From the IMG/VR virus record IMGVR_UViG_2529293139_000011: a DNA stretch of 40,519 nt; one strand, written 5' to 3'. The stretch comes from a virus (lineage: Duplodnaviria > Heunggongvirae > Uroviricota > Caudoviricetes). The first letter of the stretch is position 1; each line of letters opens with the position of its first letter. Below the pieces are notes generated by a model that saw nothing but the letters and a program-made list of their open reading frames with translations, was not told the origin of the DNA and made no database searches. Both the position numbers and the translations under genes were made by a program. Positions 1 through 24,172 of this stretch are shown here, piece after piece.

Positions 1-933
1 ATGGACAACGACAAAATTGATCAACACAGCGACGAAATTGAAGTTGAGAGCGAAGAAAAAGAGCGCGGCAAAAAAATAGAAATAGATGAAGACCGACTCC
101 CCTCCCGGGCGATGGCAATTCATGAGCATATCCGCCAGGATGGTGAAAAAGAGCTGGAACGCGACGCAATGGCGCTACTGTGGTCAGCCATTGCGGCGGG
201 TCTGTCGATGGGCGCTTCGTTACTGGCAAAAGGGATATTTCAAGTCGAACTGGAAGGTGTGCCGGGCAGCTTCTTGCTGGAGAATCTCGGTTATACCTTT
301 GGTTTTATTATCGTCATTATGGCCCGCCAGCAATTATTTACCGAAAATACCGTGACTGCGGTACTACCCGTCATGCAAAAACCGACAATGAGCAACGTCG
401 GCTTACTTATACGGTTATGGGGCGTCGTGCTGCTGGGTAATATTCTCGGGACAGGTATTGCGGCGTGGGCATTTGAATATATGCCTATCTTCAATGAAGA
501 AACTCGCGATGCATTTGTCAAAATCGGCATGGATGTGATGAAGAACACCCCCAGCGAGATGTTTGCCAACGCGATCATTTCCGGCTGGCTGATCGCCACT
601 ATGGTTTGGATGTTTCCTGCAGCGGGTGCGGCAAAGATTGTGGTGATTATATTGATGACCTGGCTTATTGCCCTGGGTGACACCACCCATATCGTGGTCG
701 GTTCTGTTGAAATCCTCTATCTGGTGTTTAACGGTACGCTGCACTGGAGCGATTTCATCTGGCCCTTCGCACTACCTACTTTAGCGGGGAACATCTGCGG
801 CGGCACCTTTATCTTCGCGTTAATGAGTCATGCACAGATTCGTAACGACATGAGCAATAAGCGTAAAGCAGAAGCACGCCAAAAAGCAGAACGTGCGGAA
901 AACATTAAGAAAAATTATAAAAACCCGGCATAA
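1..933 (+). CDS. yfdC: Inner membrane protein YfdC (formate/nitrite transporter family); host gene flanking the prophage
   Basis: 310-aa ORF starting at ATG at position 1; product recognised as E. coli YfdC with multiple hydrophobic segments; sits immediately upstream of argW as in E. coli K-12. Confidence 0.85.
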   Translation: MDNDKIDQHSDEIEVESEEKERGKKIEIDEDRLPSRAMAIHEHIRQDGEKELERDAMALLWSAIAAGLSMGASLLAKGIFQVELEGVPGSFLLENLGYTFGFIIVIMARQQLFTENTVTAVLPVMQKPTMSNVGLLIRLWGVVLLGNILGTGIAAWAFEYMPIFNEETRDAFVKIGMDVMKNTPSEMFANAIISGWLIATMVWMFPAAGAAKIVVIILMTWLIALGDTTHIVVGSVEILYLVFNGTLHWSDFIWPFALPTLAGNICGGTFIFALMSHAQIRNDMSNKRKAEARQKAERAENIKKNYKNPA

Positions 934-1008
934 ATGGCGAGGGTTTAAGCAATCGAGCGGCAGCGTACTTACCCCGCACTCCATTAGCGGGTATACTCAT
1001 GCCGCATT

Positions 1009-1083
1009 GTCCTCTTAGTTAAATGGATATAACGAGCCCCTCCTAAGGGCTAATTGCAGGTTCGATTCCTGCAGGGGACACCA
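1009..1083 (+). tRNA. argW: tRNA-Arg (anticodon CCU)
   Basis: 75-nt sequence GTCCTCTTAGTTAAATGGATATAACGAGCCCCTCCTAAGGGCTAATTGCAGGTTCGATTCCTGCAGGGGACACCA; acceptor stem GTCCTCT/AGGGGAC, anticodon loop CT-CCT-AA, T-arm GGTTCGATTCC, 3' CCA. Confidence 0.9.
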
Positions 1084-1178
1084 TTTATCAGTTCGCTCCC
1101 ATCCGTACCAGTCCGCAAAATCCCCTGAATATCAAGCCTTCCGTAGATTCGCAGTTCGTCATGGTTCGCGTCAGATCG

Positions 1179-1244
1179 TTGACAGCCGCACTCCATGACG
1201 GGTAAAAAGTGGATAAAATAATTTTACCCACCGGATTTTTACCC
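1179..1244 (+). promoter_or_regulatory. Putative intS promoter and arm-type binding-site cluster (TTGACA at 1179-1184; GGGTAAAAA at 1200-1208; TTTTACCC at 1222-1229; TTTTTACCC at 1236-1244)
   Basis: Three copies of the TTTTACCC motif (one inverted) packed into the 45 bp directly upstream of the intS ATG, with a -35-like hexamer just before them. Confidence 0.4.
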
Positions 1245-2402
1245 ATGCTCACCGTTAAGCAGATTGAAGCAGCAAAGCCGAAAGAAAAACCATACCGCCT
1301 TCTCGATGGTAATGGCCTGTACCTTTATGTCCCTGTGTCAGGGAAAAAGGTATGGCAGCTTCGCTACAAGATTGACGGTAAGGAGAAAATCCTGACCGTC
1401 GGAAAATATCCGCTTATGACTTTGCAAGAGGCAAGGGATAAAGCATGGACTGCGAGGAAAGAGATCTCGGTTGGCATCGATCCGGTAAAGGCGAAAAAGG
1501 CTTCGTCTAACAACAATTCCTTTAGCGCCATTTACAAGGAATGGTACGAGCACAAGAAGCAAGTCTGGTCAGTAGGATATGCAACTGAACTTGCAAAAAT
1601 GTTTGATGACGACATTTTACCTATCATCGGCGGCCTTGAAATTCAGGATATTGAGCCGATGCAACTGCTGGAAGTAATCCGCAGATTTGAAGATCGCGGT
1701 GCAATGGAGCGAGCCAACAAAGCCCGCAGAAGATGCGGCGAGGTTTTCCGTTACGCTATTGTCACTGGTAGGGCTAAATATAACCCGGCACCTGACCTTG
1801 CTGACGCCATGAAGGGATACCGCAAGAAAAACTTCCCGTTTCTTCCTGCAGACCAGATCCCGGCATTTAACAAAGCACTGGCAACATTTTCAGGAAGCAT
1901 CGTATCGCTCATTGCGACCAAAGTTTTACGCTACACAGCCCTCAGAACAAAAGAGCTTCGTTCCATGCTATGGAAGAACGTCGATTTTGAAAACAGGATT
2001 ATCACCATCGACGCCAGTGTGATGAAGGGACGCAAAATTCATGTGGTTCCTATGTCAGACCAGGTAGTTGAACTTCTCACTACGCTAAGCTCAATCACTA
2101 AACCAGTGTCAGAGTTTGTTTTTGCCGGGCGCAACGATAAGAAGAAGCCAATCTGCGAGAACGCGGTATTACTTGTGATCAAACAAATCGGCTATGAGGG
2201 TCTGGAAAGCGGTCACGGATTCAGGCATGAATTCAGCACGATTATGAACGAGAACGAATGGCCTGCTGATGCTATTGAAGTGCAACTGGCACATGCCAAC
2301 GGCGGATCTGTGCGCGGGATTTACAACCACGCTCAGTATCTCGATAAGCGCAGAGAAATGATGCAGTGGTGGGCAGACTGGCTTGATGAAAAGGTGGAGT
2401 GA
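1245..2402 (+). CDS. intS: Tyrosine-type site-specific integrase (prophage integrase IntS)
   Basis: ORF 1209-2402; start moved to the ATG at 1245 (MLTVKQIEAAKPKEK...), which gives the 385-aa length I recall for K-12 IntS; adjacent to the tRNA att site. Confidence 0.85.
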   Translation: MLTVKQIEAAKPKEKPYRLLDGNGLYLYVPVSGKKVWQLRYKIDGKEKILTVGKYPLMTLQEARDKAWTARKEISVGIDPVKAKKASSNNNSFSAIYKEWYEHKKQVWSVGYATELAKMFDDDILPIIGGLEIQDIEPMQLLEVIRRFEDRGAMERANKARRRCGEVFRYAIVTGRAKYNPAPDLADAMKGYRKKNFPFLPADQIPAFNKALATFSGSIVSLIATKVLRYTALRTKELRSMLWKNVDFENRIITIDASVMKGRKIHVVPMSDQVVELLTTLSSITKPVSEFVFAGRNDKKKPICENAVLLVIKQIGYEGLESGHGFRHEFSTIMNENEWPADAIEVQLAHANGGSVRGIYNHAQYLDKRREMMQWWADWLDEKVE

Positions 2403-2555
2403 TCCACCTTAGCCACTATCGAAGAGCACAAAACCTTGCAATCCAGTACAAAGCTTTGTTTGTCTCAGTTTTGTCTCATCAACCACAGCAAGTCATCGAT
2501 CGATTGAGACTTGGATGATAGACTTCATGCCTTTGATTATTAGCTGATAAAAGAA

Positions 2556-2918
2556 ATGTTAAAGCTATTTGCAAAGTACACCTCGATTGGTGTGCTGAAC
2601 ACACTTATACACTGGGTGGTTTTTGGTGTATGTATCTATGCCGCGCATACAAACCAGGCTCTTGCAAACTTCGCAGGTTTCGTTGTGGCTGTGAGCTTTA
2701 GCTTCTTCGCGAATGCAAAATTCACATTCAAGGCATCGACTACAACGATGCGCTACATGTTATATGTCGGGTTCATGGGAACACTGAGTGCTACTGTTGG
2801 ATGGGCTGCTGATAGATGTTCACTTCCTCCAATTGTCACTCTTGTCACCTTCTCCGCCATCAGCCTGGTGTGCGGTTTCGTCTATTCAAAGTTCATTGTC
2901 TTTAGGGATGCGAAATGA
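2556..2918 (+). CDS. gtrA: Bactoprenol-linked glucose translocase (flippase) GtrA
   Basis: 120-aa small membrane protein ([25 protein letters not shown]...), first gene of a gtr operon; its stop overlaps the gtrB start. Confidence 0.85.
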
Positions 2919-3841
2919 AGATATCTCTTGTAGTTCCTGTCTTCAATGAAGAAGAAACGATACCAATTTTCTATAAAGCGGTACGTGAATTCGAAGAGTT
3001 GAAGCCATATGAAGTGGAAATTGTTTTCATAAATGACGGAAGCAAAGACGCTACGGAGTCAATCATTAACGCTCTGGCTGTTTCAGATCCTCTAGTGGTT
3101 CCGCTGTCATTTACACGAAACTTTGGTAAAGAACCAGCATTGTTTGCAGGGTTAGACCATGCAACAGGAGATGCTGTAATTCCAATTGATGTTGACCTGC
3201 AAGATCCGATTGAGGTTATTCCCCATCTGATTGAAAAGTGGCGGGCAGGCGCTGATATGGTGCTTGCTAAGCGATCAGACCGCTCAACCGATGGTCGTCT
3301 GAAGCGAAAAACTGCTGAGTGGTTCTATAAGCTCCACAACAAAATAAGCAATCCAAAGATCGAGGAAAATGTTGGTGATTTCCGGTTAATGAACCGTGAA
3401 GTTGTCGAAAATATTAAGCTCATGCAAGAACGCAACCTATTCATGAAGGGCGTACTGAGTTGGGTTGGAGGAAAGACTGATGTTGTAGAATATGTTCGCG
3501 CCGAACGCGTGGCGGGCAGCACTAAATTCAATGGCTGGAAATTGTGGAATCTAGCGCTTGAAGGGATAACAAGCTTTTCTACTTTCCCACTTCGTATGTG
3601 GACATATATCGGATTTGTTGTTGCAGCAGCTTCATTCTTCTATGGAGCATGGATGATTGCAGATAAAATACTCTGGGGAAATGAAGTGCGTGGTTACCCA
3701 TCGCTACTTGTCTCCGTACTGTTTTTAGGTGGAATTCAATTAATTGGAATAGGCGTGCTCGGGGAGTACATAGGCAGAATTTATATAGAGGTTAAGAATA
3801 GACCTCGTTATATCATAAAGGGCAATAAAAATGATATTTAG
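2915..3841 (+). CDS. gtrB: Bactoprenol glucosyltransferase GtrB (GT2 family)
   Basis: 308-aa [23 protein letters not shown]... with GT2 DXD-type motifs and C-terminal TM helices; overlaps gtrA and the following gene. Confidence 0.85.
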
Positions 3842-5510
3842 GAACAGACATACTCTTTTATCTATATTCGCTATTTTCATGTTGGTATTTCTTGTTGCAT
3901 TAAATACACCAATGCACTCTGATGACTATAGTTATTACTCACGAGGATTGGGGCTTGATGCGCACATTGCAAATTATATGCACTGGAGTGGGAGGATTGT
4001 AGCAGATTACGTATCTACCGGGATGTTGTCGATTGAGGATCATACCCTTAAGGCCCTCGTCAACTCTATAGGTGTAACATCACTTATTGTTCTCATTGCT
4101 GCAATACCTTCTCAATTATGTAAAGTTGAAATCAAACCATTAGTATTAATTGTTGTTTTTGCTTTATATTGGTCATGTAACCCAAATCTAGGACAGAACT
4201 CGTTCTGGGTTGTAGGAAGCGCGAATTACGCCTGGACTACACTATTTGTTTTATGTTTCATCTATTATTTTTTGAAGTGGATTGAAAACCAAAATACGAC
4301 TAAGATAGTTTCGTTATTTATTCTTGGTTTAATAGCAGGCTGCTCAAACGAAAATACCGCTGTAACTATAGCTCCATTGACAGTTGTTGTTGCAATCTCT
4401 TTATTTTACTTTAAAAAAATAAGATGGCAATATGCTTTATTACCAACGATCGGTGTCATTATTGGTTCTGTGACAATTATTCTTTCACCAGGAAACGCAG
4501 CAAGGGCGAAAAATATTGCGTTCGTTGATTGGTATGCAATGCCGTTAGGTGAGAGGCTAATAGAGCACTTTACTCATAGGTTTTGGTTTGCTTTCACATC
4601 CGCATGGCTTGTAATTGGGCTGCTGGTTATCTGTTCAATTGCATCATATGTTTTTTATCGAAGAAAACTACTTTCATTTTCTAATGCTTCATTATTTGCA
4701 TCAATCTCGTTTTTTGGGTGCTTCCTGCTTGCTAATGCCGCATTGGCTGGTGCTCCATACACTCCTCCGCGATCTTTTAGCATAGGGTTCTGTTTCCTTT
4801 TACTTTGCTTCTCCTGCCTTTTCACTTGGATAAATCAACAGGATGGCAAGATAAAAAGCACTTTATCTTACGCTATTTTATTAGTTTCACTAATTAATTT
4901 CATTGGCTCATATTATTTCGTTTATTCCGCTTATAAAAGAACAACGATCCAGCAGACACTTAGGGAGTCGTCGATTAGAGATGGTAGGAGCAATGGTTTG
5001 AAATCTATTTCTATCCCTGATTATTTCTTTACGCATCTTAAGAATTATAACGATAGATATGATAGATTTCATAATGAGGGAAGCTATGGCAGATACTATG
5101 GTATATCCAAAGCGCCATTACAAAAAGCAACCTTTGACTATTCTGGCATAGCATATAAACCAGTTTACAGTAAAGATGTGCCTCTATACGAGCGCGATAA
5201 TATCAAGTCTATTTTCATGTCACCGCAACAACCATTCATCAGTGGGACATTGATACTTGAGATTTCTAACAATATTGATGGGATTTTATCTCGTGATGGT
5301 GGCGTGAAAATCTTCTTACATATTTTAAAATCAGATGGAAGCATCGTTAACAAGGACTTTTTCCCAACTACTATAGAGCTTAATGGTAGATTCTATGCTG
5401 GAGTTGATCTTTCTGGAGTTGATATAAATGACATTAATAGCCTATTGATTGGTACATTCAATATTCATACGCGTCATCGATATACACAAACACAGATAAA
5501 GATTAATTAA
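3831..5510 (+). CDS. Serotype-specific O-antigen glucosyltransferase, GtrC-like (polytopic membrane N-terminal part plus a soluble C-terminal domain)
   Basis: 559-aa ORF in the third position of the gtr operon; strongly hydrophobic N-terminal ~380 aa, AT-rich codon usage typical of acquired gtrC genes; this family is highly variable so exact specificity is unknown. Confidence 0.65.
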
Positions 5511-5534: not shown

Positions 5535-7409
5535 CTAGCTGTGCAATGAGATATCCGCACTAACGATAGATGCACTTAGATTTACCAGCACCCCTGCCGC
5601 TGTATAGAATCGCAATATAACAGATTTAGCTAAAAACTCAGGTAGAATAATTGGCCCTCCGGTTGAAGCGGGCCTTATAGTACTGCTTCTAATTGCGTTG
5701 ACTGTAACATGACTTTTAAATGCAACAGTAATCTCTCCAGTCCCCGTGATAGTTGCTGATGCTATAAGTTCAGATGAATCAGTGATTGTTATTGCGCTGT
5801 TATTACTAACTATACGTGCAAACCTATCAAAATCTACCAATAAATCGGTGACATTATCCAGGCCCTGGAAGATTGATGCTCTCGGGGTGCTGATGTTATA
5901 TACAGATATTCCTGACGCTGCGGCTGTGAATCTTATAAATGAACTCGTAGAAGCACCGCCATACAATGTTTCTGAAACTCCATCGATAGTTAATTGTGAG
6001 CAACTACCAAGCAAGAAGGCATTGCTGTCACCGCGGCCCAAAATCTTTATATTTGATACTCGCGACCGTTGGCAATTTAAGGCAATTGGCACAAGTCCGC
6101 CAGTTGTAGGAGTAACCCCAGCCTTAACTTCCATTTCAAACGATACGCCATCAATAACCAATCCAGTCAAAAGCGAGCTGTCATCAGGCGTACCAGCTAG
6201 TCCATATACTGCGTTGCCGTCATATTGTATAACTCTAACATGGCCATTTTTTATCTGACATTGATTGATTACACCATCGGCGGTATTAAGTGCTATCCCC
6301 GCATTAGCTCCGTTTATTATGAAATCATCAACAATTACACGGTTACTTTTCCTTATATTAATGCCCCACATGTTCCTGTCATTAATATTGTTATATCTGG
6401 CAATAATATTTTTAACTATGATGTCTTCACAGAAATCGCCGGCTCCCTGTATTACCGATACATAGACAGCATGCCTTCCCAAATCCCCTTTATCTGCATC
6501 TGCTTCAAAATTAACGCCATCAACGATAATTCTCTTACAGCCACCAAGCAGAACTCCATAGCCGCCAGCAACAACATCAGAGTGATAACGATTCCCTCTT
6601 GAATAGGTATCTCTAATAATACTATCTACACATCGTTGCAAGTACACAGATCCCGTATAGCCGTATGTATCCGACCCGACAATCGATATATTGCTGCTGT
6701 CTGTAAAGGTAATTGCATAGGCAACATTGTTTCCCGTAGCTGGCCCATTTGTTATTAAACCGATACAGCGAAAATCTTTTATTTTTACCCCGGTTTTCGT
6801 GTCCGCAAAAAGAGCCTGACCTTTATTGATGTTAGCTACTGAGCCGCCAAACCCTTGTATTACCTGGTAATCATCATTGATAGTTATTCTAGAATCTATC
6901 GTTTGTGCATCTGATATTTGTACATCTTGGCCATTTGAAAGAACTGCTTGAATACTGTTAGCGTAACCATCTGGTCGTCGGTCGATAGCATCTAAATCTA
7001 GCTGCAGTGTCCCGCGGTGGTTTGTGCCTATTAACTGCGAACCGGTTGATGATATTAAATTTTGCTCGAGCTGATCAGGGTCATACTTCAAAACATTAGG
7101 ATAATAAAACTGCTGCGCACCATATGCATCATAAACAGCCATAGAATGGCCTTGCACAGTTACGAACTTGGCAATCTGTCCGTTATATACCGGGTAACCA
7201 GCAGCGTTAATGATGATTGGTTGCGATACAGGAACGTGAGAGCCGTCTTCGTTCTCCACATAAACCTGAATCTGGTTTTCAGGATTTACAGGATCAGTGT
7301 CAATTTTACCGATATAAATTTTGCCATTGGCAACCGCTTTAAAAGAACGAGCCATAGTGAAGAGTTGCGAAGGCATGCTTACCACAACATTTGCGGTGAT
7401 ATCTGACAT
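5535..7409 (-). CDS. Tailspike protein (P22 gp9-like head-binding domain plus a divergent beta-helix receptor-binding domain)
   Basis: ORF 5535-7457; start moved to the ATG at 7409 ([43 protein letters not shown]...), preceded by GGAG; the N-terminal ~110 aa match the conserved P22/Sf6 tailspike head-binding domain. Confidence 0.85.
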
Positions 7410-7433
7410 TTCATTGCTCCAGACGAATGATAT

Positions 7434-7459
7434 GATGCAACCATGATGTGATTGCATAC
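7434..7459. promoter_or_regulatory. Imperfect palindrome (ATGCAACC...TGATTGCAT) in the divergent mnt/tailspike intergenic region; candidate operator
   Basis: TGCAA / TTGCA inverted half-sites ~11 bp apart between two divergent start codons. Confidence 0.25.
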
Positions 7460-7530
7460 CGAAATGGTACTATTGAGTATTTATCCAGTAGGTTACGATG
7501 CCATTCCACCCAACTGGTGAGGCATCAAGG

Positions 7531-7791
7531 ATGTACAGCAAATACGACGAGGCGCAGTTTCACTTGAGACTTCCGCATGAACTCCACGCGAAAATTAAGC
7601 AGCGTGCGAAGATGAATAACAGGTCGCTGAACTCAGAGATAATTGCAGCGATTGAAGAATCATTGGCTAAACAAAGCTCTGCATCAGTTTACATTGACGA
7701 TGCAGAGCGTATGGCAGAACAACAATCTGATATGGTTAAGAAAATTGTCTTTGATACGCTCAAAGAGCTATATAAAAAAGACAGCAGCTAA
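7531..7791 (+). CDS. mnt: Mnt-like ribbon-helix-helix repressor (Arc/MetJ family)
   Basis: ORF 7498-7791; start placed at ATG 7531 after AAGGA; C-terminal part (...DAERMAEQQSDMVKKIVFDTLKELYKK) resembles P22 Mnt. Confidence 0.7.
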   Translation: MYSKYDEAQFHLRLPHELHAKIKQRAKMNNRSLNSEIIAAIEESLAKQSSASVYIDDAERMAEQQSDMVKKIVFDTLKELYKKDSS

Positions 7792-7808: not shown

Positions 7809-10544
7809 TTACTTCTGGTTATCATCACTGTTCATCCAGTACATGATGCCTAGCCTTGATATGGTTTTCTTATCTGATTCTGGAAGTGAGTTGTAAAACG
7901 AGCGCCAAGCAGAAGAGCGTCTTACAGTTGTATCAACGATGCTTTCTGGTGCTTGTTTTACTGCCAGCCTTGCTGCTTTCTGGAATTCTGGTGAGCTAAT
8001 TAGCTTTTCTGCAGATTCAATTGATTCAGCGCCGCCCATCGCCCTGATTTTGCTGGCGACTTTTGCCCCAATTTCTGACCCAGCAACAGCACCTACTGCA
8101 CTGAACGGTCCTGACACAGTTGAACCAACCGCAGTGCCAATGCGTTGGGCATGGTTAGCAACAAATTCATTTGCCGCAGTGACGCGATTAAACCGTTTGA
8201 CGAACTCGTTTAGTCTTCCTGTAGTTATCTCGTAAGATTTTGCATCTTTGATAGCCTTTGCGACCTTATATACATCGTTCAGACCTGACATAGTCTCTTT
8301 TGGTAAATGTCGGGCAAGATTGCGCATCTGCCCGTTTGCTAACATGTTTTGATACCAGTCAGCAAACCCCGCAGGATTAAAATCAGCGCCACGTTTTCCG
8401 TTCGAAAGCATATCCCGAAGACCTGTTCCCAGTAGCTCGGTTCTTAGCTTCCTGGACGGCGTGTTTTGCATCAATTCACGAAATCCTTTGGCATCGCCTT
8501 TCGACATTGCCTGTAGTGCTGTAGTTGCTTTGCGAGAAACATCACCGTTCAGCGTTCTGCCAGTTAGATTAATCATTTGCTCTTCCATGCTTTTTCGCAT
8601 CTGAACAAGCCTCTGAGCAACTTCAAAATCACGTAATGCATTTGTCTCTGACAGCGCCGCCTTTTGATCATCGGCGAGCGAACCGTAAAGCCTCGATAAA
8701 GCAGCGCGATCAGCATCTTTATATGGTCCAGAATTCTTATGAAGTGCATCACCAACAAGTCGTCGTTGCTTATTGAGATTTGCATAAGTTAATGCGCCGT
8801 TCTTGCCTGGATTAACTGCCCGAAAGACTCTCTTTTCAATAGGGTCAAGGTTTTTCATCCCGCCAAGATCTTCTGCCACCTGTTTGAGCATTGACCTTGT
8901 TGATGGTGCATCAATTTTTGCACCTGCAGGCATCGCCTTTTCAACATTGCGATAAAGCTGGTCGCTTCGTTTCATCAGCGCAGACATTCTTCCATTGACC
9001 GTATCAATAAACTTGTCGCTCATACCAAGAGCATCTTTTGCACCGGAAACGCGATCAATTATCTCCCCCGCGCCCTGTGCTAGCTGCCTGATTGCTTCAT
9101 TTTCCTGCACCTGTAGAGCAGAACCCGCACGGGACTTGATTGCTTGCTCAACTGCCTTGTATTGCTCGTTCCCGGAAAAGTGTGAAGGGAGTAATGAATC
9201 AACATTAAGCCTTTCAGCAGACTCCAGAACTTCAGCCTGAGGATTGATATCTAGTTCATCAAGCGATGAAGCGAGATTTGGCCTTTTTTGTGCTGCTACT
9301 GTGCGAACGACTTCCTCTGGGTTCCTCGTCGCAGGCGTCATTGGTACACCTTGTGCTACTCTTGCCTCTGCGGCATGAACCGCAGGACTTGTTGCTGCAG
9401 CGGCATCACCGGAGAATGGTGATGCTTCTGTTGCCGCAGTGGTCGCTCTCTGTGCAGATGTTTTATTGCCACTAATTATATTTGATGCACCACGAACACC
9501 ATGGGTAACGCCATTTATCAGGCCATGCGTAGCAATGTTAAGTCCGGCATTAATAGCGGCATTTTCGGCAAAATCACCCCGTTGATTCGCCGCGTCAGCG
9601 AGAGAACCAATGACCATGTTTCCAGCTACTCCTGCTCCAGGAACAAGATAACCGCCTATTGACTCTCCAGCTTGCGCATAAGGGTCTGTCGGTCGATCTA
9701 CTGGACGATAGACATCGTCCAAAACCTTGGGGCCACCAAGCCCCTGGCTGATTGCATTAATCAGACTTGCGCCACCCTGCAATACGTCAAATGGTATGTT
9801 TACCAGACCACGACCAGCCTGCTCTGCAATTTGCCCTGCACTTTGACCACCTGTGAGCCAATCGCCAGCTTGTTGCATCAATGATGGTTCTTCACGTGCT
9901 GGTTCATTATTGGCCTGATTAACTGTTTGTTGCTGAACAGGTTTCGGTGCGACAGAACTTACGGGTTGAGGTGGCTGCTGACTGGCTGCCTGCTGCTCAA
10001 TCTGAGCAAATGGATTATTTGGGTCTGACTGCACACCTGATGCCGATACTTGTTCGGATGACTGTACTTCCAGTTGTGCAAACGGGTTGTTAGGGTCTTG
10101 CTGAGGATGTACCTTTGCAGAGGTGGCGCGCTGTTCGACTGTTGAGTCTGTCACCGGGTCACCCGCCCATTGAGCAAAGCGATCATCAACGTAACCGCGG
10201 CCTTCAGGTCCTGGCGTATATTCACCACGCTTTGCCTTCATAACGTTGCCGGGACCGTCGTGATAAGCCTGAAGAGCGTCACGCCAGTTACCAAACTGCT
10301 GGTACATCTTTGCCAGATAGCGCGCGCCAGCGTCAGCCTGATATTCGGGGTTTTGCATTTGCTCATCGGTATAACCCATATCACGCCATGTCCCAGGCAT
10401 GACCTGAGTCAATCCTACAGCCCCGGCGGAGCTTACTGCGGCAGGGTTGTAAGAAGACTCCTTGGCACCCAGTGCAGTCATCAACCCTTCTGGCACACCG
10501 TAACGTGCGCCAGCCTGCTCTAACAAATCACGGTAATTAGCCAT
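7809..10544 (-). CDS. Ejection (DNA-transfer) protein, gp16-position homolog, with an N-terminal lytic transglycosylase (SLT) domain
   Basis: 911-aa ORF, last gene of the ejection-protein block; N-terminus contains SLT-like motifs ([26 protein letters not shown]); middle part is Gln/Pro/Ala-rich and low in complexity. Confidence 0.65.
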
Positions 10545-11876
10545 TTACTGCCCCAAAGATGGAAGATATCCGTAGCGATTAATGAAGTCGATTGACAGCT
10601 CGGGGTGCTGCTTCAGGTAATCTATAGAAGCCTGAGGCGCTTCCACTCGCTTGATACCGTTTTGCTGAACGTACTTACCAACCGCCTCATTACGCTTCTG
10701 GTTGAGCGTGTTCAGGATGACGCCAGCGTTGCGACGAAAGGACTCCTCGCTCTGCGAGTTCTGCAGCGAACCAACAGCCTGGTCGAGCTTTTTGCCCTCG
10801 GCATCAGAAAGTGCGCCCATGCCTCGCATGGCCTGAACCGCTGTCAGGTATGCTTGGGATTTAAAGGTATCAAGTCGTGCCTGAGTGTCTGCAGCCTGTG
10901 AGCCTGGAACGTTGGGGATTACTCCACGTAAGCCTGTAATGCTCTTAAGTGAAGGAGAACTAACGATATCGTTCAGAGTGAACATGCTGGTTGTGAGGGT
11001 GTTGATGCCGTCTTTGTAGCCATCATTTAGCGCTTGCTGCTTCTGCTGCAACTGCTGGTTGTTGGCTGCTATGCGGCTCTGTATTTCCTGGCGCTTCAGG
11101 TCGTTAGTTTCTGCTGATAGCATCCGGTCAAGGCGCTTATTTTCGTTGTTAATGCGGTTTGTTTCTGCGTCCAGATTAATGCGCTGCTGACCTAAATTCG
11201 CCTGGATATCTTGCCCGCGCATTGTGATTGCCTGATTCCGAGCGGCGGTTTGCGAATCCAGATCCTGACCGCGCATGGTAACCTGGCGACCCTGCATTTT
11301 ATCCTGTAGGTCAAAGTATTTTTCGGGTCCGAGACTGTTCATCCCCAGGTGATCGACAAATTCGCCGAACTGCCGCGGGTTCTGTTGGTACATCTGAGCG
11401 ACGTCCTGAGGATTAACGCCAACACGAGCTAACTCACCGGCGTTGTTTTGCAGCCATGATTGCATTGCTTCTGGAGACGATGACGCAAGGCGTGCGCCAG
11501 CCGCTAAGGTGCCGATAGAATTACGCTGATCTTCATCAATGAATCCCATGCCTTTACGAACGGATTCTATCTGGTCTGGATATTGAGTAGCCAACTGACG
11601 CAAAGCACCGCGATCACCAGACGCATAAGCATTAGCGTACGCCTGCTGAAATTCTTTCTGCCGCTGAGCCTGCTTTTCCTGCTGAAACACCCCTGCAATA
11701 CCTGAAAGGCCTTGCAAAGCAGTCAGCCCAACATTGTTAGCGCCTGAACGCTCAATATCATTGTTCTGCCTGATAAGCTGAAGCGTATTGCCGATGTCAT
11801 TTACGCTCGGAGCGTTTGAGTTGACGCCGCCGATACCAGCCAACAATCCGCCGTTTGTTCCTTGCCAAGTAGCCAT
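10545..11876 (-). CDS. Ejection protein, gp20-position homolog
   Basis: 443-aa ORF in synteny with P22 gene 20 (gp14-gp7-gp20-gp16 order); Gln/Asn-rich, coiled-coil-like. Confidence 0.6.
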   Translation of the reverse strand: MATWQGTNGGLLAGIGGVNSNAPSVNDIGNTLQLIRQNNDIERSGANNVGLTALQGLSGIAGVFQQEKQAQRQKEFQQAYANAYASGDRGALRQLATQYPDQIESVRKGMGFIDEDQRNSIGTLAAGARLASSSPEAMQSWLQNNAGELARVGVNPQDVAQMYQQNPRQFGEFVDHLGMNSLGPEKYFDLQDKMQGRQVTMRGQDLDSQTAARNQAITMRGQDIQANLGQQRINLDAETNRINNENKRLDRMLSAETNDLKRQEIQSRIAANNQQLQQKQQALNDGYKDGINTLTTSMFTLNDIVSSPSLKSITGLRGVIPNVPGSQAADTQARLDTFKSQAYLTAVQAMRGMGALSDAEGKKLDQAVGSLQNSQSEESFRRNAGVILNTLNQKRNEAVGKYVQQNGIKRVEAPQASIDYLKQHPELSIDFINRYGYLPSLGQ

Positions 11877-12580: not shown

Positions 12581-13036
12581 CTATCTCCCGTGATTCAGGA
12601 AGTCGATTAGTTCTTCGCGTGTGGCGCTGTAAAAAGTCACGTCATCCACGCCTTTAAAGTATTTCTTGATGGTTCCGACACGCTTAAGGCCAATCATTGC
12701 GCAGTAAATCTGCCCGTGGCGGAATTTGCGTGCGGCGAACGATGTGACGCACTGAACGGTGGTGTTAGTCAGAATGTATTGCCAGAAAGCCATCCCGATT
12801 TCCTTGCTGAAGCCGCGAATCTCTGGCAGGTACATGGCGTGGCAATCGAATGTAAGCGGCTGAATCTCCTGATAGTAAACAATGCCGCCAAACTGACCGT
12901 GCACGTTAACCTCAAAGTAACGGCATTCAGGCTTGTAGTCGTATCCATCACCGTTGTTGCTACCGGCGATAATGTCAGGGTGATTTCCGACTGCTTCGAT
13001 CAGGTCGATGTTTCGCGTTGGTTTGAACTGAATCAT
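12581..13036 (-). CDS. gp14-position protein (head/ejection-associated)
   Basis: 151-aa ORF between the tail needle and the gp7-like gene; assigned by synteny only. Confidence 0.5.
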   Translation of the reverse strand: MIQFKPTRNIDLIEAVGNHPDIIAGSNNGDGYDYKPECRYFEVNVHGQFGGIVYYQEIQPLTFDCHAMYLPEIRGFSKEIGMAFWQYILTNTTVQCVTSFAARKFRHGQIYCAMIGLKRVGTIKKYFKGVDDVTFYSATREELIDFLNHGR

Positions 13037-13884
13037 TACTGCTCCGCGATTATCTTGATGGTTGTGGCAGTAAACGCCGCACCATTTGACTGAATGGTTA
13101 ACGTGCTGCCATTTGTGGCAAGAAAGCCGTCTTTATCCACGCTGAAGAACGTAGCTAACAGGATGTTGTCGGTTGTTGTCGCCGCATTACGACTGCTGAC
13201 CAACGTGTCAGGAACAGAGCCGGAAAATGTTAGCTGCATTGACCTGTTGGCGGTTCCGCTGGGCCACGTCCCGACAATCGACAGCTTGAAGAACAAGGTT
13301 TTGTTCTCGTTGAACACAACCATCTTGTTGTTAACGGTGTCGAAGAATGGTGCCAACGAGCCGGATGACGGCGTGAGCGTTTTCAGTAGGCTAACAAGGT
13401 TGGTCGGCGCTGTCGGAATGGTTACTGATACGCCAGAGTAAACAACCTCTGACTTCTTGCGCGTGGTTGCATAATCCAGAGCATCAATGCGCGATTCATG
13501 ATCTGAAACCTGCGATTCCAGCGACTGAACTCTGGTATCAAGCGACGCAATATCGCTTTCATTCTGAGCGATTCGCGTTTCATGTTCCTGAAGAGTTGAT
13601 TCTGCCTGGCTGATTCGCTCCTCATGATTAACAAGCGTTGCTTCCGCAGCAGAAATTCGCTGCTCATGGTCAGCGAGAATCACATCCTGCTCATCGTTCC
13701 TGACCTGTGCATCATAAGCGCCCTGTCCGGCCTCGTTGGCCTTGTTAGCCACGTTACCAACATCAGTACCTTGCGCGATAACGTACAGCAGATACGACTG
13801 CGAGAAGATATTGCGTGGAAGGACTGATGTATCGAGCCGCGTAGCCTGGATGATTACCGGCACATTGAGATTCGAATCCGCCAT
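13036..13884 (-). CDS. Tail needle protein (gp26-like N-terminus and coiled coil, with a C-terminal knob domain)
   Basis: 282-aa ORF; N-terminus [43 protein letters not shown] matches P22 gp26; heptad repeats in the middle; extra C-terminal domain as in Sf6-type needles. Confidence 0.8.
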
Positions 13885-15302
13885 TACTCAATCCTTATCT
13901 GGCAGCCAGACAGAGTGACAGGTGACTTCGTGATAATGCGCAATTTGAAGCCGACATTTTTCCTGATGCGCCCTACTCGCTTCCACAAAACACGTTTGTC
14001 GTAAACGAACGGTTCATTCTGCTCAATCATCTGCTCACGCCCGTAATTGATGCCGTCAGTGGTTGCAGAGAGGAACAGGCGGTCGGCGTACTGAGCTACG
14101 CCAGTGGATGATTCCACCTCCAGATCGAAGCATCTGGCGTTATCCGCTTTGAACAGTGGAGTAAACAGCAGGTGTTCCTGTTGCTTGTCGTACTGGCTGC
14201 TGATATCGAACTGCAGTTTCCCGGTAACAGATTCCAGCTTATCGCCGCACGTTATCTGATTGCCTTCGTAAATGAAGTCGATAGCGCGGTACACATCGTC
14301 ATATAAGCCTGTTTTCAGCACACACCATTGCGGACCATTGGCGCTTGAAGATGCGTCGTACACGAGGACGTGGCGCGGAAGGTGGATAATCAGCAGTTCA
14401 TGCGCATCAAATCGCAGCGATTCCATCACACCATCAGCCAGTTCATCAGCAGTGTAGGAGCGGAGGATTTTCTCAATGCTCGCGCTGGCGATTGGTGATA
14501 CCTGACCGGAACCGATGATGTACACAGACGGCGCACCTGTTGCCGGATTGCTGATGAACGCATAAGAATCGGCGAACGGCGTTTTGCAGTAAGTTCCGGC
14601 AATGCCTTTCTGCACCATCAGCGATGGTTGTGCAACATACAAAGCAGCCCCAACAGTGGTTGCACCAGTCAGGGAGAAATATTCAATCGTCGACGAACCA
14701 AAGCAGACTATGAAGTCTCGCCATGTACCGATGCCGATGATTCCGTCAGGCTGAGACTCTGCGCGATATTGTGCGCTGTAGCGGTCAGGATGCGATTCGT
14801 CTTCAAGGTCAGTGATAAACCATGAATCAGTGCCGTCTTTTGACCACGCATAACGCCCACGTAAACGAGTAATGTCGCGAACCGAACCTAACTCATACTG
14901 CGTGAATCCGCTGTCTGTAGGCCAGTTTGAGACGGTTTTAACCGTGCCATCATAGCGGTATTCGACCAGTTGCCCGTTAACACCTACCGCCTGTGATGTC
15001 CGACCATGTGCCATTGATACGCGACCACTTCCGGCAACATCACCGACTTCACTTTCGCCTTTGTACAGCTTGCCACCACACACGCGATAAACAGCATTCT
15101 GCGCCATGTTGTACTCGACGCCACGCGATACGCCGTTCACATCAGAACGTTTGGCAATGCCCGGGAATGAGCGAAGATATCCGCTGCTGTTCAGGATTTC
15201 TTTGGGTGTAGCCAACATATTCACTGGCAGATAGTCGATATAGTCGGCGTTTCTGAAGTCTTTGCCGACACCTTTCATAAGCGGAAGTTGCTGAATAGGC
15301 AT
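13884..15302 (-). CDS. Tail hub protein (gp10-like)
   Basis: 472-aa ORF, same length and position as P22 gp10. Confidence 0.75.
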
Positions 15303-22703: not shown

Positions 22704-23183
22704 TTAAATGATTTGCCAGTCTTCAGCCATCAGGTCGCCAATGGATGGAACCCATGTAGCAAGGAGGTTCTGTGAGTTTTTCAATACAAGCGTGTCATTG
22801 AAAGTTGGCTCGCCAACATATTCGCCAAAGCCATAACCCAACGCAGACGCTAATTTTTCCCCTTTCACGAGATAAACAAACTGGTCTTTCCCATTCCATC
22901 CTGCCCGCTGCAAACTTTTGCCCTGTTTTAACGCTTCCATGGCAAGGCCGAAACTTAGTCCTGATACCGGACGATAAGCCTTTTCGAATACTTCTTTTGG
23001 ACTCCAGCTAACGTAGCCATCAAAGCGATCGGTGTTAGGTTTTCCGCCATCCAGATATTCAACCAGATAGCCTTCGTCCTCGCCGTTTTCTCCGGCAGGA
23101 AGCTGCCAGCCACGAAAATCGTTATATGCCTGTCTCGTCATCGGAAAGGCGTTAATCAGTTTTACGCCAATATGCTGGGTCAT
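22704..23183 (-). CDS. DUF2829-domain protein (C-terminal half resembles the family that includes Thoeris anti-defence Tad2) with an N-terminal extension
   Basis: 159-aa ORF; the C-terminal region EALKQGKSLQRAGWNGK...WVPSIGDLMAEDWQII matches the DUF2829 pattern as I recall it (K.G....R..W, W.PS..DL.AEDW); lies between the lysis cassette and terminase. Confidence 0.5.
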   Translation of the reverse strand: MTQHIGVKLINAFPMTRQAYNDFRGWQLPAGENGEDEGYLVEYLDGGKPNTDRFDGYVSWSPKEVFEKAYRPVSGLSFGLAMEALKQGKSLQRAGWNGKDQFVYLVKGEKLASALGYGFGEYVGEPTFNDTLVLKNSQNLLATWVPSIGDLMAEDWQII

Positions 23184-23261: not shown

Positions 23262-23699
23262 TTATTTCAGGCATTGCGTCCTGATGTACTCCTGCAGGTA
23301 GTTAACCTGCGCGGTTATCTTGTCGATTCCACTTCGGAGACGGTAATAATTGAGTTCAGCATCTGCTGTAAGTCCTGGGCTTTCTCCATCGCCCATGCTG
23401 CTGGCTCTGGCCGTTGACTTTGCACAGGTGGCGGCGACTTGCAGGCGCTTACGACCAGCAGAAACATCAGCACGGAGACTTTCGATAGTCGCGTTAGCAT
23501 CAGCAAGCTCCTTTGTATATCTGGCATCGAGTTCTGCTACATCACGTTGACGCTTCTGCATATCAGCGATGATGGATGTGGCCTTATCGCGCTGGTCTTT
23601 GTAGGCGATGGCGTTATCACGGTAATGATTAACAGCCCATGACAGGCAGACGATGATGCAGATAACCAGAGCGGAGATAATCGCGGTTACTCTGCTCAT
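23262..23699 (-). CDS. Rz: Inner-membrane spanin Rz
   Basis: 145-aa ORF with an N-terminal TM segment and coiled coil, immediately after the endolysin gene. Confidence 0.8.
23315..23500 (-). CDS. Rz1: Outer-membrane lipoprotein spanin Rz1, embedded in Rz in the +1 frame
   Basis: ORF 23315-23527; start placed at the internal ATG giving [25 protein letters not shown]...; lipobox VVSAC and Pro-rich tail. Confidence 0.65.
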
Positions 23700-24172
23700 A
23701 CCTCAATCTCTCTGACTGTTCCGCCAGCTTCTTTGAATTTTGTAATCAGGCTGTCAGCCTTATGCTCGAACTGGCCATAACCAGCCCCGGGCAACGAAGC
23801 CCAGATATTGCTGCAACGGTCGATTGCCTGACGGATATCACCGCGATCAATCATCGGCAAAGCGCCACGCTCTTTAATCTGTTGCAATGCCACAGCGTCC
23901 TGGCTTTTCGGAGAGAAGTCTTTCAGGCCAAGCTGCTTACGGTATGCATCCCACCAACGTGAAAGAAGCTGGTAACGTCCGGCTGCTGTTGATTTGAGTT
24001 TGGGGTTTAGCGTGACAAGTTTGCGAGGGTGATCGGAGTAATCAGTGAATAGCTCTCCGCCAACAATGACGTCATAACCATGATTTCTGGTTTTCTGCCG
24101 TCCGTTATCAGTTCCCTCTGACCACGCCAGCATATCGAGGAACGCCTTACGTTGATTATTGATTTCCACCAT
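23696..24172 (-). CDS. R: Endolysin R (lambda-type lytic transglycosylase)
   Basis: 158-aa [42 protein letters not shown]... recognised as near-identical to lambda R. Confidence 0.9.

Follow-up and report, generated by a model that had tools for sequence, protein, structure and literature searches.

In phage P22 the channel for DNA delivery is described as an assembly of three gene products (gp): gp7 builds its extracellular and outer-membrane part, a dodecamer of gp20 makes the periplasmic tube, with a barrel through the peptidoglycan, and gp16, of which about six copies are modelled, is the stump through the cytoplasmic membrane; gp16 probably leaves before gp20 and diffuses as a periplasmic monomer (bioRxiv 10.64898/2026.09.03.749273). 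In T7 the N-terminal transglycosylase of gp16 is required for genome entry only when the peptidoglycan is highly cross-linked, and P22-like phages form no core stack of the T7 type (PMC8954989). In reviews on the ejection proteins of podoviruses, the domain that cuts peptidoglycan figures as a trait of T7-like gp16 which is absent from P22-like phages. The stretch of DNA described here, 40,519 nucleotides (nt) of the IMG/VR virus record IMGVR_UViG_2529293139_000011 (Caudoviricetes), called the window in the following, provides a counter-example: the gp16-type gene of its ejection block encodes a protein of 911 amino acids (aa) which begins with an SLT (GH23-like lytic transglycosylase) domain, and comparison with its homologues indicates that in a sizeable minority of P22-like phages gp16 bears such a transglycosylase of the T7 style in the form of a swappable cassette.

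The protein belongs to the gp16 type of ejection proteins by its position in the ejection block, a core segment 86% identical to P22 gp16 and a match to the gp16-containing family PHROG 770. The reading that we favour, and consider likely, is that the short leader of gp16 has here been replaced by a cassette of about 206 to 220 residues, made of the SLT domain and a tether, which would cleave peptidoglycan locally during DNA delivery. Gene structure, domain identities, motif conservation, modular distribution and linkage to gp20 were all computed directly.

A clear SLT-type domain at the start of the protein had been read in an earlier note on this DNA, made without database searches, and Pfam PF01464 indeed matches residues 7-110 with E=3.3e-25 and 88.4 bits (curated cut-off 21.3). 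A sequence search of the PDB returned only lytic transglycosylases for residues 1-105, the best being E. coli Slt70 (E=5e-10), together with MltC and MltE, and gave no match for the rest of the protein beyond these residues. The catalytic glutamate which the note had placed in the motif GAKESSYNP is Glu29, and E29-S30 is aligned with the catalytic E478-S479 of Slt70 and with E37-S38 of T7 gp16. Further SLT motifs are present, GLTQ at residues 44-47 and AYHDG at residues 93-97. Among 28 SLT-bearing homologues, 44-100% identical in the domain, K28-E29-S30, G44-L45, Q47 and P50 are invariant, as are Y76-L77, Y94, G97, G99 and N100. Since the E-S, G-L-x-Q and Y-x-x-G motifs are thus invariant, the domain is judged to be intact; the conservation pattern is that expected for a working family-1 lytic transglycosylase and supports this assignment, and from it we infer catalysis.

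Structure prediction, a check proposed in the note, also found the likeness to SLT folds. The AlphaFold2 (AF2) model, calculated from an alignment of 41 sequences, shows a lysozyme-like alpha-helical fold for residues 1-125 with a predicted local distance difference test (pLDDT) value of about 90. A Foldseek search with the full 911 aa model gave as top match gp16 of the T7 core (7eyb_I, E=4.7e-4); next came MltE, MltF, Slt and MltC, these four with probability 1.00 and with template modelling (TM) scores of about 0.45-0.49 on the length of MltE; the E-values of the Mlt and Slt matches are modest (0.04-0.3) because the query was the whole model.

The two SLT domains of T7 gp16 and of the window protein are homologous, with 28% identity over 130 residues (pairwise E=4e-11), and in both phages the largest ejection protein starts with this domain, an extended segment following it. 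The bodies, in contrast, are not detectably related, and the T7 protein is 1318 aa long compared to 911 aa here. BLAST detected no similarity to T7 gp16 beyond the SLT domain, a separate model of residues 411-911 had no match in the PDB (best E=0.32), and the gp16 of 7EYB was absent from the top 50 PDB matches of this model, none of which reached E<0.3. As the 411-911 model finds nothing, the T7 gp16 match of the full-length model is driven by the SLT domain, and homology over the whole protein was rejected. The analogy to T7 gp16 drawn in the earlier note therefore holds for the N-terminal domain and fails for the C-terminal body: the protein appears to be T7-gp16-like at its N-terminus, but not a member of the T7 gp16 family.

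With P22 gp16 and Sf6 gp13 the window protein shares the gene position, the core segment and a profile-level match of the body. The core comprises 125 residues (221-345), corresponding to residues 53-177 of P22 gp16, and is the sole part of P22 gp16 picked up by BLASTP; it holds mildly hydrophobic stretches and has a pLDDT of about 45-54. Homologues bearing this segment carry PF26808 (Phage_P22_gp16), an annotation precomputed on near-identical homologues. Ahead of the core P22 gp16 has a leader of 52 residues and Sf6 gp13 (665 aa) one of about 77, versus 220 residues of SLT domain and linker in the window protein. The overall size difference to P22 had been recognised in the note, whose figure of about 600 aa for the P22 protein agrees with the 609 aa of P22 gp16.

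PHROG 770 ("DNA transfer protein"), which includes P22 gp16 and Sf6 gp13, is matched over residues 108-864 with E=8e-162 and by the C-terminal 501 residues alone with E=3e-64; PHROG 6704 was matched as well. P22 gp16 and Sf6 gp13 themselves match PHROG 770 with E=2e-266 and E=1e-237, respectively. BLASTP found no similarity between the body and the C-terminal part of P22 gp16, the family match being at profile level only. In the full-length model the all-alpha body has a pLDDT of about 90 at residues 425-775, low values at 775-819 and values of 66-88 at about 820-905. Transmembrane helices were considered and none is predicted in the protein, the highest Kyte-Doolittle mean over 19 residues being 1.2; P22 gp16 is likewise without a strongly predicted transmembrane helix (bioRxiv 10.64898/2026.09.03.749273). 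The view of the note that this is a fused peptidoglycan-degrading and DNA-translocation protein is thus borne out as far as both parts, SLT domain and gp16 type, can be recognised by sequence; muralytic activity and ejection are predicted from them.

Searches of the BFVD with the body model returned many predicted phage proteins of 600-1000 aa, the best being from C130_2 (TM 0.67, E=6e-20). Several of these matches, from uncultured phages, are annotated as SLT or LT_GEWL and in one case as peptidase M15B. The joining of different wall hydrolases to gp16-like helical bodies may be a repeated, broader theme.

SLT domain, core and body are separated by two linkers. The low-complexity Gln/Pro/Ala-rich segment reported in the note exists at residues 126-220 (Q 18, P 14, A 12, V 11 and S 11%), but it follows directly on the SLT domain and does not form the middle of the protein. 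It contains the motif DPNNPFAQ twice, at residues 150 and 174; a tandem repeat in the DNA was rejected as source of this pair, since Tandem Repeats Finder gave only an unrelated 12-nt repeat of 2.2 copies at 9820-9845. The pLDDT is below 50 at residues 131-231 and 336-408, and the first linker is predicted to be disordered. By a rough polymer estimate this 95-residue tether would measure about 34 nm along its contour, with an expected span of about 8 nm between its ends, and would be long enough for the SLT domain to reach the wall from a membrane-proximal body. The length of the second linker varies by short in-frame duplications among homologues otherwise 97-99% identical, as with TETSPFSG, present twice in homologue P0002, and AAATNPAVHA, present twice in homologue P0008; this suggests replication slippage in a segment where length changes would be tolerated.

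The modular behaviour of the N-terminal part became evident by comparison of the best 120 database homologues. The shared cassette consists of residues 1-206, that is the SLT domain and most of the linker, and ends at about residue 206 (nt 9927). With at least 98% identity it is found ahead of gp16 forms of 569, 797, 813, 875, 911 and 935 aa. Behind it are, among others, the Sf101-type body in the 911 aa form, the same body preceded by an Sf6-type middle in the 935 aa form and the whole body of Sf6 gp13 in the 797 aa form, for which one cluster has 1,295 member sequences; the 875 aa form has a body of the Dewey type, and Cronobacter contributes forms of 927-934 aa. Three SLT-less leaders, the P22-type of 53 aa, one of 64 aa and the Sf6-type of 77 aa, in turn precede an Sf101-type body which is 99-100% identical. 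The breakpoints in the DNA are consistent with this: IME10 and phiKp_30 have no more than nt 1-618 of the gene in common with the window, Huey and Dewey nt 1-899, and HK620, CUS-3 and epsilon34 only nt ~605-899, which is the conserved core. Prophages of Serratia, Klebsiella, Pluralibacter, Cronobacter and Shimwellia encode gp16 proteins with a more distantly related SLT domain (44-56% identity). SLT domain and linker are thus, judged from their sequence context, an exchangeable N-terminal cassette, which is combined with four or more different gp16 bodies, and the core serves as the junction between exchangeable N- and C-terminal modules.

In a set of 5,426 complete E. coli genomes the cassette is present in 70 (~1.3%), always with at least 99% identity, and the full Sf101-type gene in 14. 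A gp7-related gene was found in 1,251 of these genomes, in 819 of them at 80% coverage or more, so that cassette carriers make up about 5-9% of the E. coli genomes with a gp7-type gene. A distribution of this kind, typical of a cassette, speaks for an accessory function. It is carried by the plaque-forming or inducible phages Sf101, APC_JM3.2, Huey, Dewey and IME10 and is therefore compatible with infectivity. Natural variants in which one gp16 body either has the cassette or lacks it offer a genetically tractable test of a virion wall hydrolase in DNA entry; Huey and Dewey infect E. coli K-12 with restored O16 antigen. The gain from these data is incremental and not conceptual, with a modest interest deriving from the cassette behaviour, the counter-example to the reviews and the linkage to gp20.

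This linkage concerns the C-terminal type of gp20. Six cassette loci were examined, those of E. coli strains 1190 and 7/2, of Dewey, IME10 and Sf101 and of the window itself, and in each of them the gp20 C-terminus (200 residues) agrees at 97-100% with that of the window, irrespective of the gp16 body. Where the gp16 body is the same but the SLT domain is lacking, the gp20 C-termini reach only 20-38% identity. The last 600 nt of the gp20 type of the window (10545-11144) are present in 69 of the 5,426 E. coli genomes compared to 70 for the cassette (9927-10544); the two matches abut wherever coordinates are listed, and among the matches listed 11 of 12 cassette genomes are also in the gp20 list. 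A general rule by which the type of gp16 leader co-varies with the gp20 C-terminal type was rejected, since SLT-less leaders assort freely: Sf6 and the locus L014 have an identical leader and unrelated gp20 C-termini, and the locus L010 combines an Sf6-like leader with a P22-like gp20 C-terminus.

On the grounds of this near-perfect co-occurrence we put forward only tentatively that the SLT domain and linker form, together with the gp20 C-terminal ("club-foot") domain, a co-adapted two-gene unit which moves among P22-like phages as a block. It is equally doubtful, though conceivable, that tether and SLT domain might dock on that gp20 foot in the way in which the "wings" or "molecular tape" of the T7 gp16 N-terminal part (gp16-N) lie on the gp15 tunnel. 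The Sf6 genes 16 and 20 need joint transfer to work in P22 (PMC10883804) and the gp20 foot has been proposed as template for gp16 assembly (bioRxiv 10.64898/2026.09.03.749273), and a functional matching of gp20 foot and gp16 cassette would fit both reports. The alternative is simple physical linkage, with a young cassette still unseparated from its gp20 neighbour. If the co-adapted unit were true, a subset of P22-like phages would possess a periplasmic tube with T7-style peptidoglycan cutting.

According to the reading favoured here, the 911 aa protein would be packaged in the head and, at infection, expelled through the tail together with gp7 and gp20, entering the periplasm early. The conserved core and the gp16 body would then assemble on or within the cytoplasmic membrane, where the periplasmic tube of gp20 has its foot, and the tethered SLT domain would cut glycan strands locally where this tube passes, which may ease its passage or widen the DNA conduit. 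The enzyme is probably conditionally helpful and not essential, as in T7, because the same body occurs naturally without the SLT domain and because P22 and Sf6 infect without it. A number of points weigh against this proposal. For enzymatic activity, virion incorporation and ejection of this very protein we rely on P22 and T7, the benefit to the phage is deduced, and the topology of gp16 in the channel, including which end faces the wall, is likewise extrapolated. P22, Sf6, HK620 and CUS-3, none of which has an SLT domain, infect well, and the sole muralytic protein reported for the P22 virion is gp4 (Moak & Molineux 2004, cited after PMC5380687), for which reasons the SLT domain may be redundant. 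The idea that it compensates for a divergent gp4 was rejected, since Sf6 gp4 is 99% identical to that of the window and yet Sf6 gp16 has no SLT domain.

Other explanations of the domain fit the data less well. It could mainly have a structural or docking function in the trans-periplasmic channel, comparable to the "wings" of T7 gp16-N, with catalysis irrelevant to infection. The T7 N-terminal domain is part of the gp15:gp16-N tunnel and its catalysis is needed only under special conditions (PMC8954989), and the near-constant neighbourhood of the cassette to one gp20 C-terminal type would fit docking; nevertheless the Glu-Ser pair and the other active-site motifs are invariant down to 44% identity, which is unexpected for a purely structural element, and a structural role and catalysis are compatible with each other. 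We therefore regard an exclusively structural role as unlikely. Even less probable, to a degree that we give it very little weight, is an action late in the cycle or from the prophage, as auxiliary lysin or in wall remodelling and not in entry. SLT domains are known also in lysis and wall-remodelling proteins and the PHROG matches include "endolysin" families, but here the domain and a gp16-type virion protein form one reading frame within the late virion-assembly operon, a signal sequence or a strongly hydrophobic segment is absent from all 911 aa, and the prophage has a lysis cassette of its own, with a holin-position open reading frame (ORF), an endolysin-family ORF (23696-24172) and Rz. 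As for the long ORF being an artefact, by sequencing or assembly fusion or as a decaying prophage gene, the frequency of truncated copies of 567-576 aa in Shigella flexneri assemblies and the unannotated region of IME10 could raise such a doubt; the identical full-length architecture in the independently sequenced Sf101 and APC_JM3.2 and in 14 complete E. coli genomes, and the fusion of the cassette to other gp16 bodies in 70 genomes and in phages Huey and Dewey, leave this explanation with practically no probability.

The features of the window related to this gene are given in the following table. The window is a P22-like prophage integrated at a tRNA-Arg gene, as follows from the host gene at its left end, the tRNA-Arg(CCT) and the integrase; the attachment site is of the same type as described for Sf6, HK620 and Kapi1 (argW). 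As stated in the earlier note, the 911 aa gene is the last of the ejection block: it is third in a gene 7/20/16-type block, between gene 14 and the tailspike region of a P22-like virion module. No spacer separates its ATG from the stop codon of the gp20-like gene, and GGGG lies just ahead of the ATG. The virion module is Sf6/HK620-like with 95-97% nucleotide identity, the 911 aa gene itself not being Sf6/HK620-like, and no single phage in the collection searched covers more than 57% of the first 25 kb of the window.

Table. Features of the 911 aa gene, of its predicted product and of the neighbouring prophage genes in the window.
Feature	Position (nt)	Strand	Residues	Basis or context
Host formate/nitrite-transporter-family gene	left end of window, within 1-5510			first in order
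tRNA-Arg(CCT)	1009-1083			prophage left junction
Integrase	1209-2402			after tRNA-Arg(CCT)
gtrA-like, gtrB-like and DUF6056 (gtrC-position) O-antigen conversion genes	within 1-5510			after integrase
Tailspike with P22 head-binding domain	5535-7457			downstream of 911 aa gene
Mnt/Arc-type repressor gene	7498-7791	+		downstream of 911 aa gene
Predicted gp16-type ejection ("DNA transfer") protein with N-terminal SLT domain	7809-10544	-	1-911	single complete ATG-to-stop ORF, 911 aa and stop codon
All-alpha C-terminal body	7812-9314	-	411-911	AF2 models, PHROG 770, PHROG 6704
Gly/Ala-rich mildly hydrophobic stretch interrupting body	8040-8174	-	791-835	
Second linker, Ala/Thr-rich, low complexity	9315-9509	-	346-410	composition, AF2, length variation in homologues
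Conserved Gly/Ala-rich gp16 core segment	9510-9884	-	221-345	86% identical to P22 gp16 residues 53-177
Q/P/A/S/V-rich low-complexity linker	9885-10169	-	126-220	composition; disorder predicted by AF2
SLT / GH23-like lytic transglycosylase domain	10170-10544	-	1-125	Pfam, PDB sequence matches, AF2, Foldseek
Predicted catalytic acid Glu29 codon, in GAKESSYNP	10458-10460	-	29	alignments and 28/28 invariance, codon checked
gp20-type ejection protein (Inj_translocase), 443 aa	10545-11876	-		Pfam E=8e-68
gp7-type ejection protein, 230 aa	11886-12578	-		Pfam P22_gp7 E=1e-132
DUF2824/gp14-type gene	12581-13036	-		upstream of 911 aa gene
Sf6-type tail-needle gene	13036-13884	-		upstream of 911 aa gene
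P22 gp10-type gene	13884-15302	-		upstream of 911 aa gene

The closest relative is gene 13 of phage Sf101 (YP_009153087), with 99.7% nucleotide and 99.5% amino acid identity over the full length, and the gene of phage APC_JM3.2 is 99.2% identical. Sf101 gp13 is essentially the same protein in the same position of the ejection block. The two phages are nevertheless different mosaics, the window prophage having an Sf6/HK620-like virion module in which the needle knob is of the Sf6 type; its tailspike is another one, and gtrABC takes the place of oac. Sf101 gene 13 is labelled "transglycosylase" in GenBank and "lytic tail fiber protein" in RefSeq, and the E. coli copies are named "lytic transglycosylase domain-containing protein" by the Prokaryotic Genome Annotation Pipeline (PGAP). 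The RefSeq name is a misnomer taken over from PHROG 21143; this family (576 positions) seems to be built on S. flexneri copies truncated near residue 572, which explains the misleading name. Truncated copies of 567-576 aa (homologues P0016-P0020) are found in many S. flexneri assemblies, one cluster having 227 members. In the IME10 record (L004, NC_019501) the cassette lies at 4001-4618 directly after gene 20 with 99.5% identity and without an annotated coding sequence.

Sequence and domain annotation are thus already in the databases, and the P22 literature searched does not discuss the SLT domain. No paper describing the protein was found in the searchable literature, a mention in Casjens & Thuman-Commike 2011 or Iglesias et al. 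2023 being possible. The Sf101 paper reports low identity of ORF11-13 to CUS-3 and leaves the SLT domain unmentioned (PMC4159516), and the publications describing Kapi1, E212 and the phages Huey, Dewey and Louie do not analyse the domain.

The same architecture of an SLT "DNA transfer protein" is present in podophages of the Skarprettervirus/Sortsne type (Skarpretter gp17, IME_EC2, Lumpael, C130_2 and Kosakonia Kc259). They keep the gene orders gp14-gp7-gp20-gp16-tailspike and gp4-gp10-needle-gp7-gp20-gp16-tailspike, and their SLT domains are 53-63% identical to that of the window. They differ in belonging to other genera, in being mostly isolated lytic phages and in their linkers and gp20 types, and the overall identity of the Sortsne protein is only about 31%.

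Two further ORFs of the prophage deserve mention. The endolysin-position ORF of the lysis cassette, 158 aa on the minus strand, matches PHROG 90 "endolysin" with E=1e-63 and shows a weak match to a PHROG of metallo-endopeptidases; Pfam and NCBIfam gave no match for it, and it is not a lysozyme of the P22 gp19 type. An ORF of 159 aa (22704-23183, minus strand), located between the lysis genes and the small terminase region, encodes a Tad2-like (Thoeris anti-defence 2) domain with a Pfam match of E=1.8e-21.

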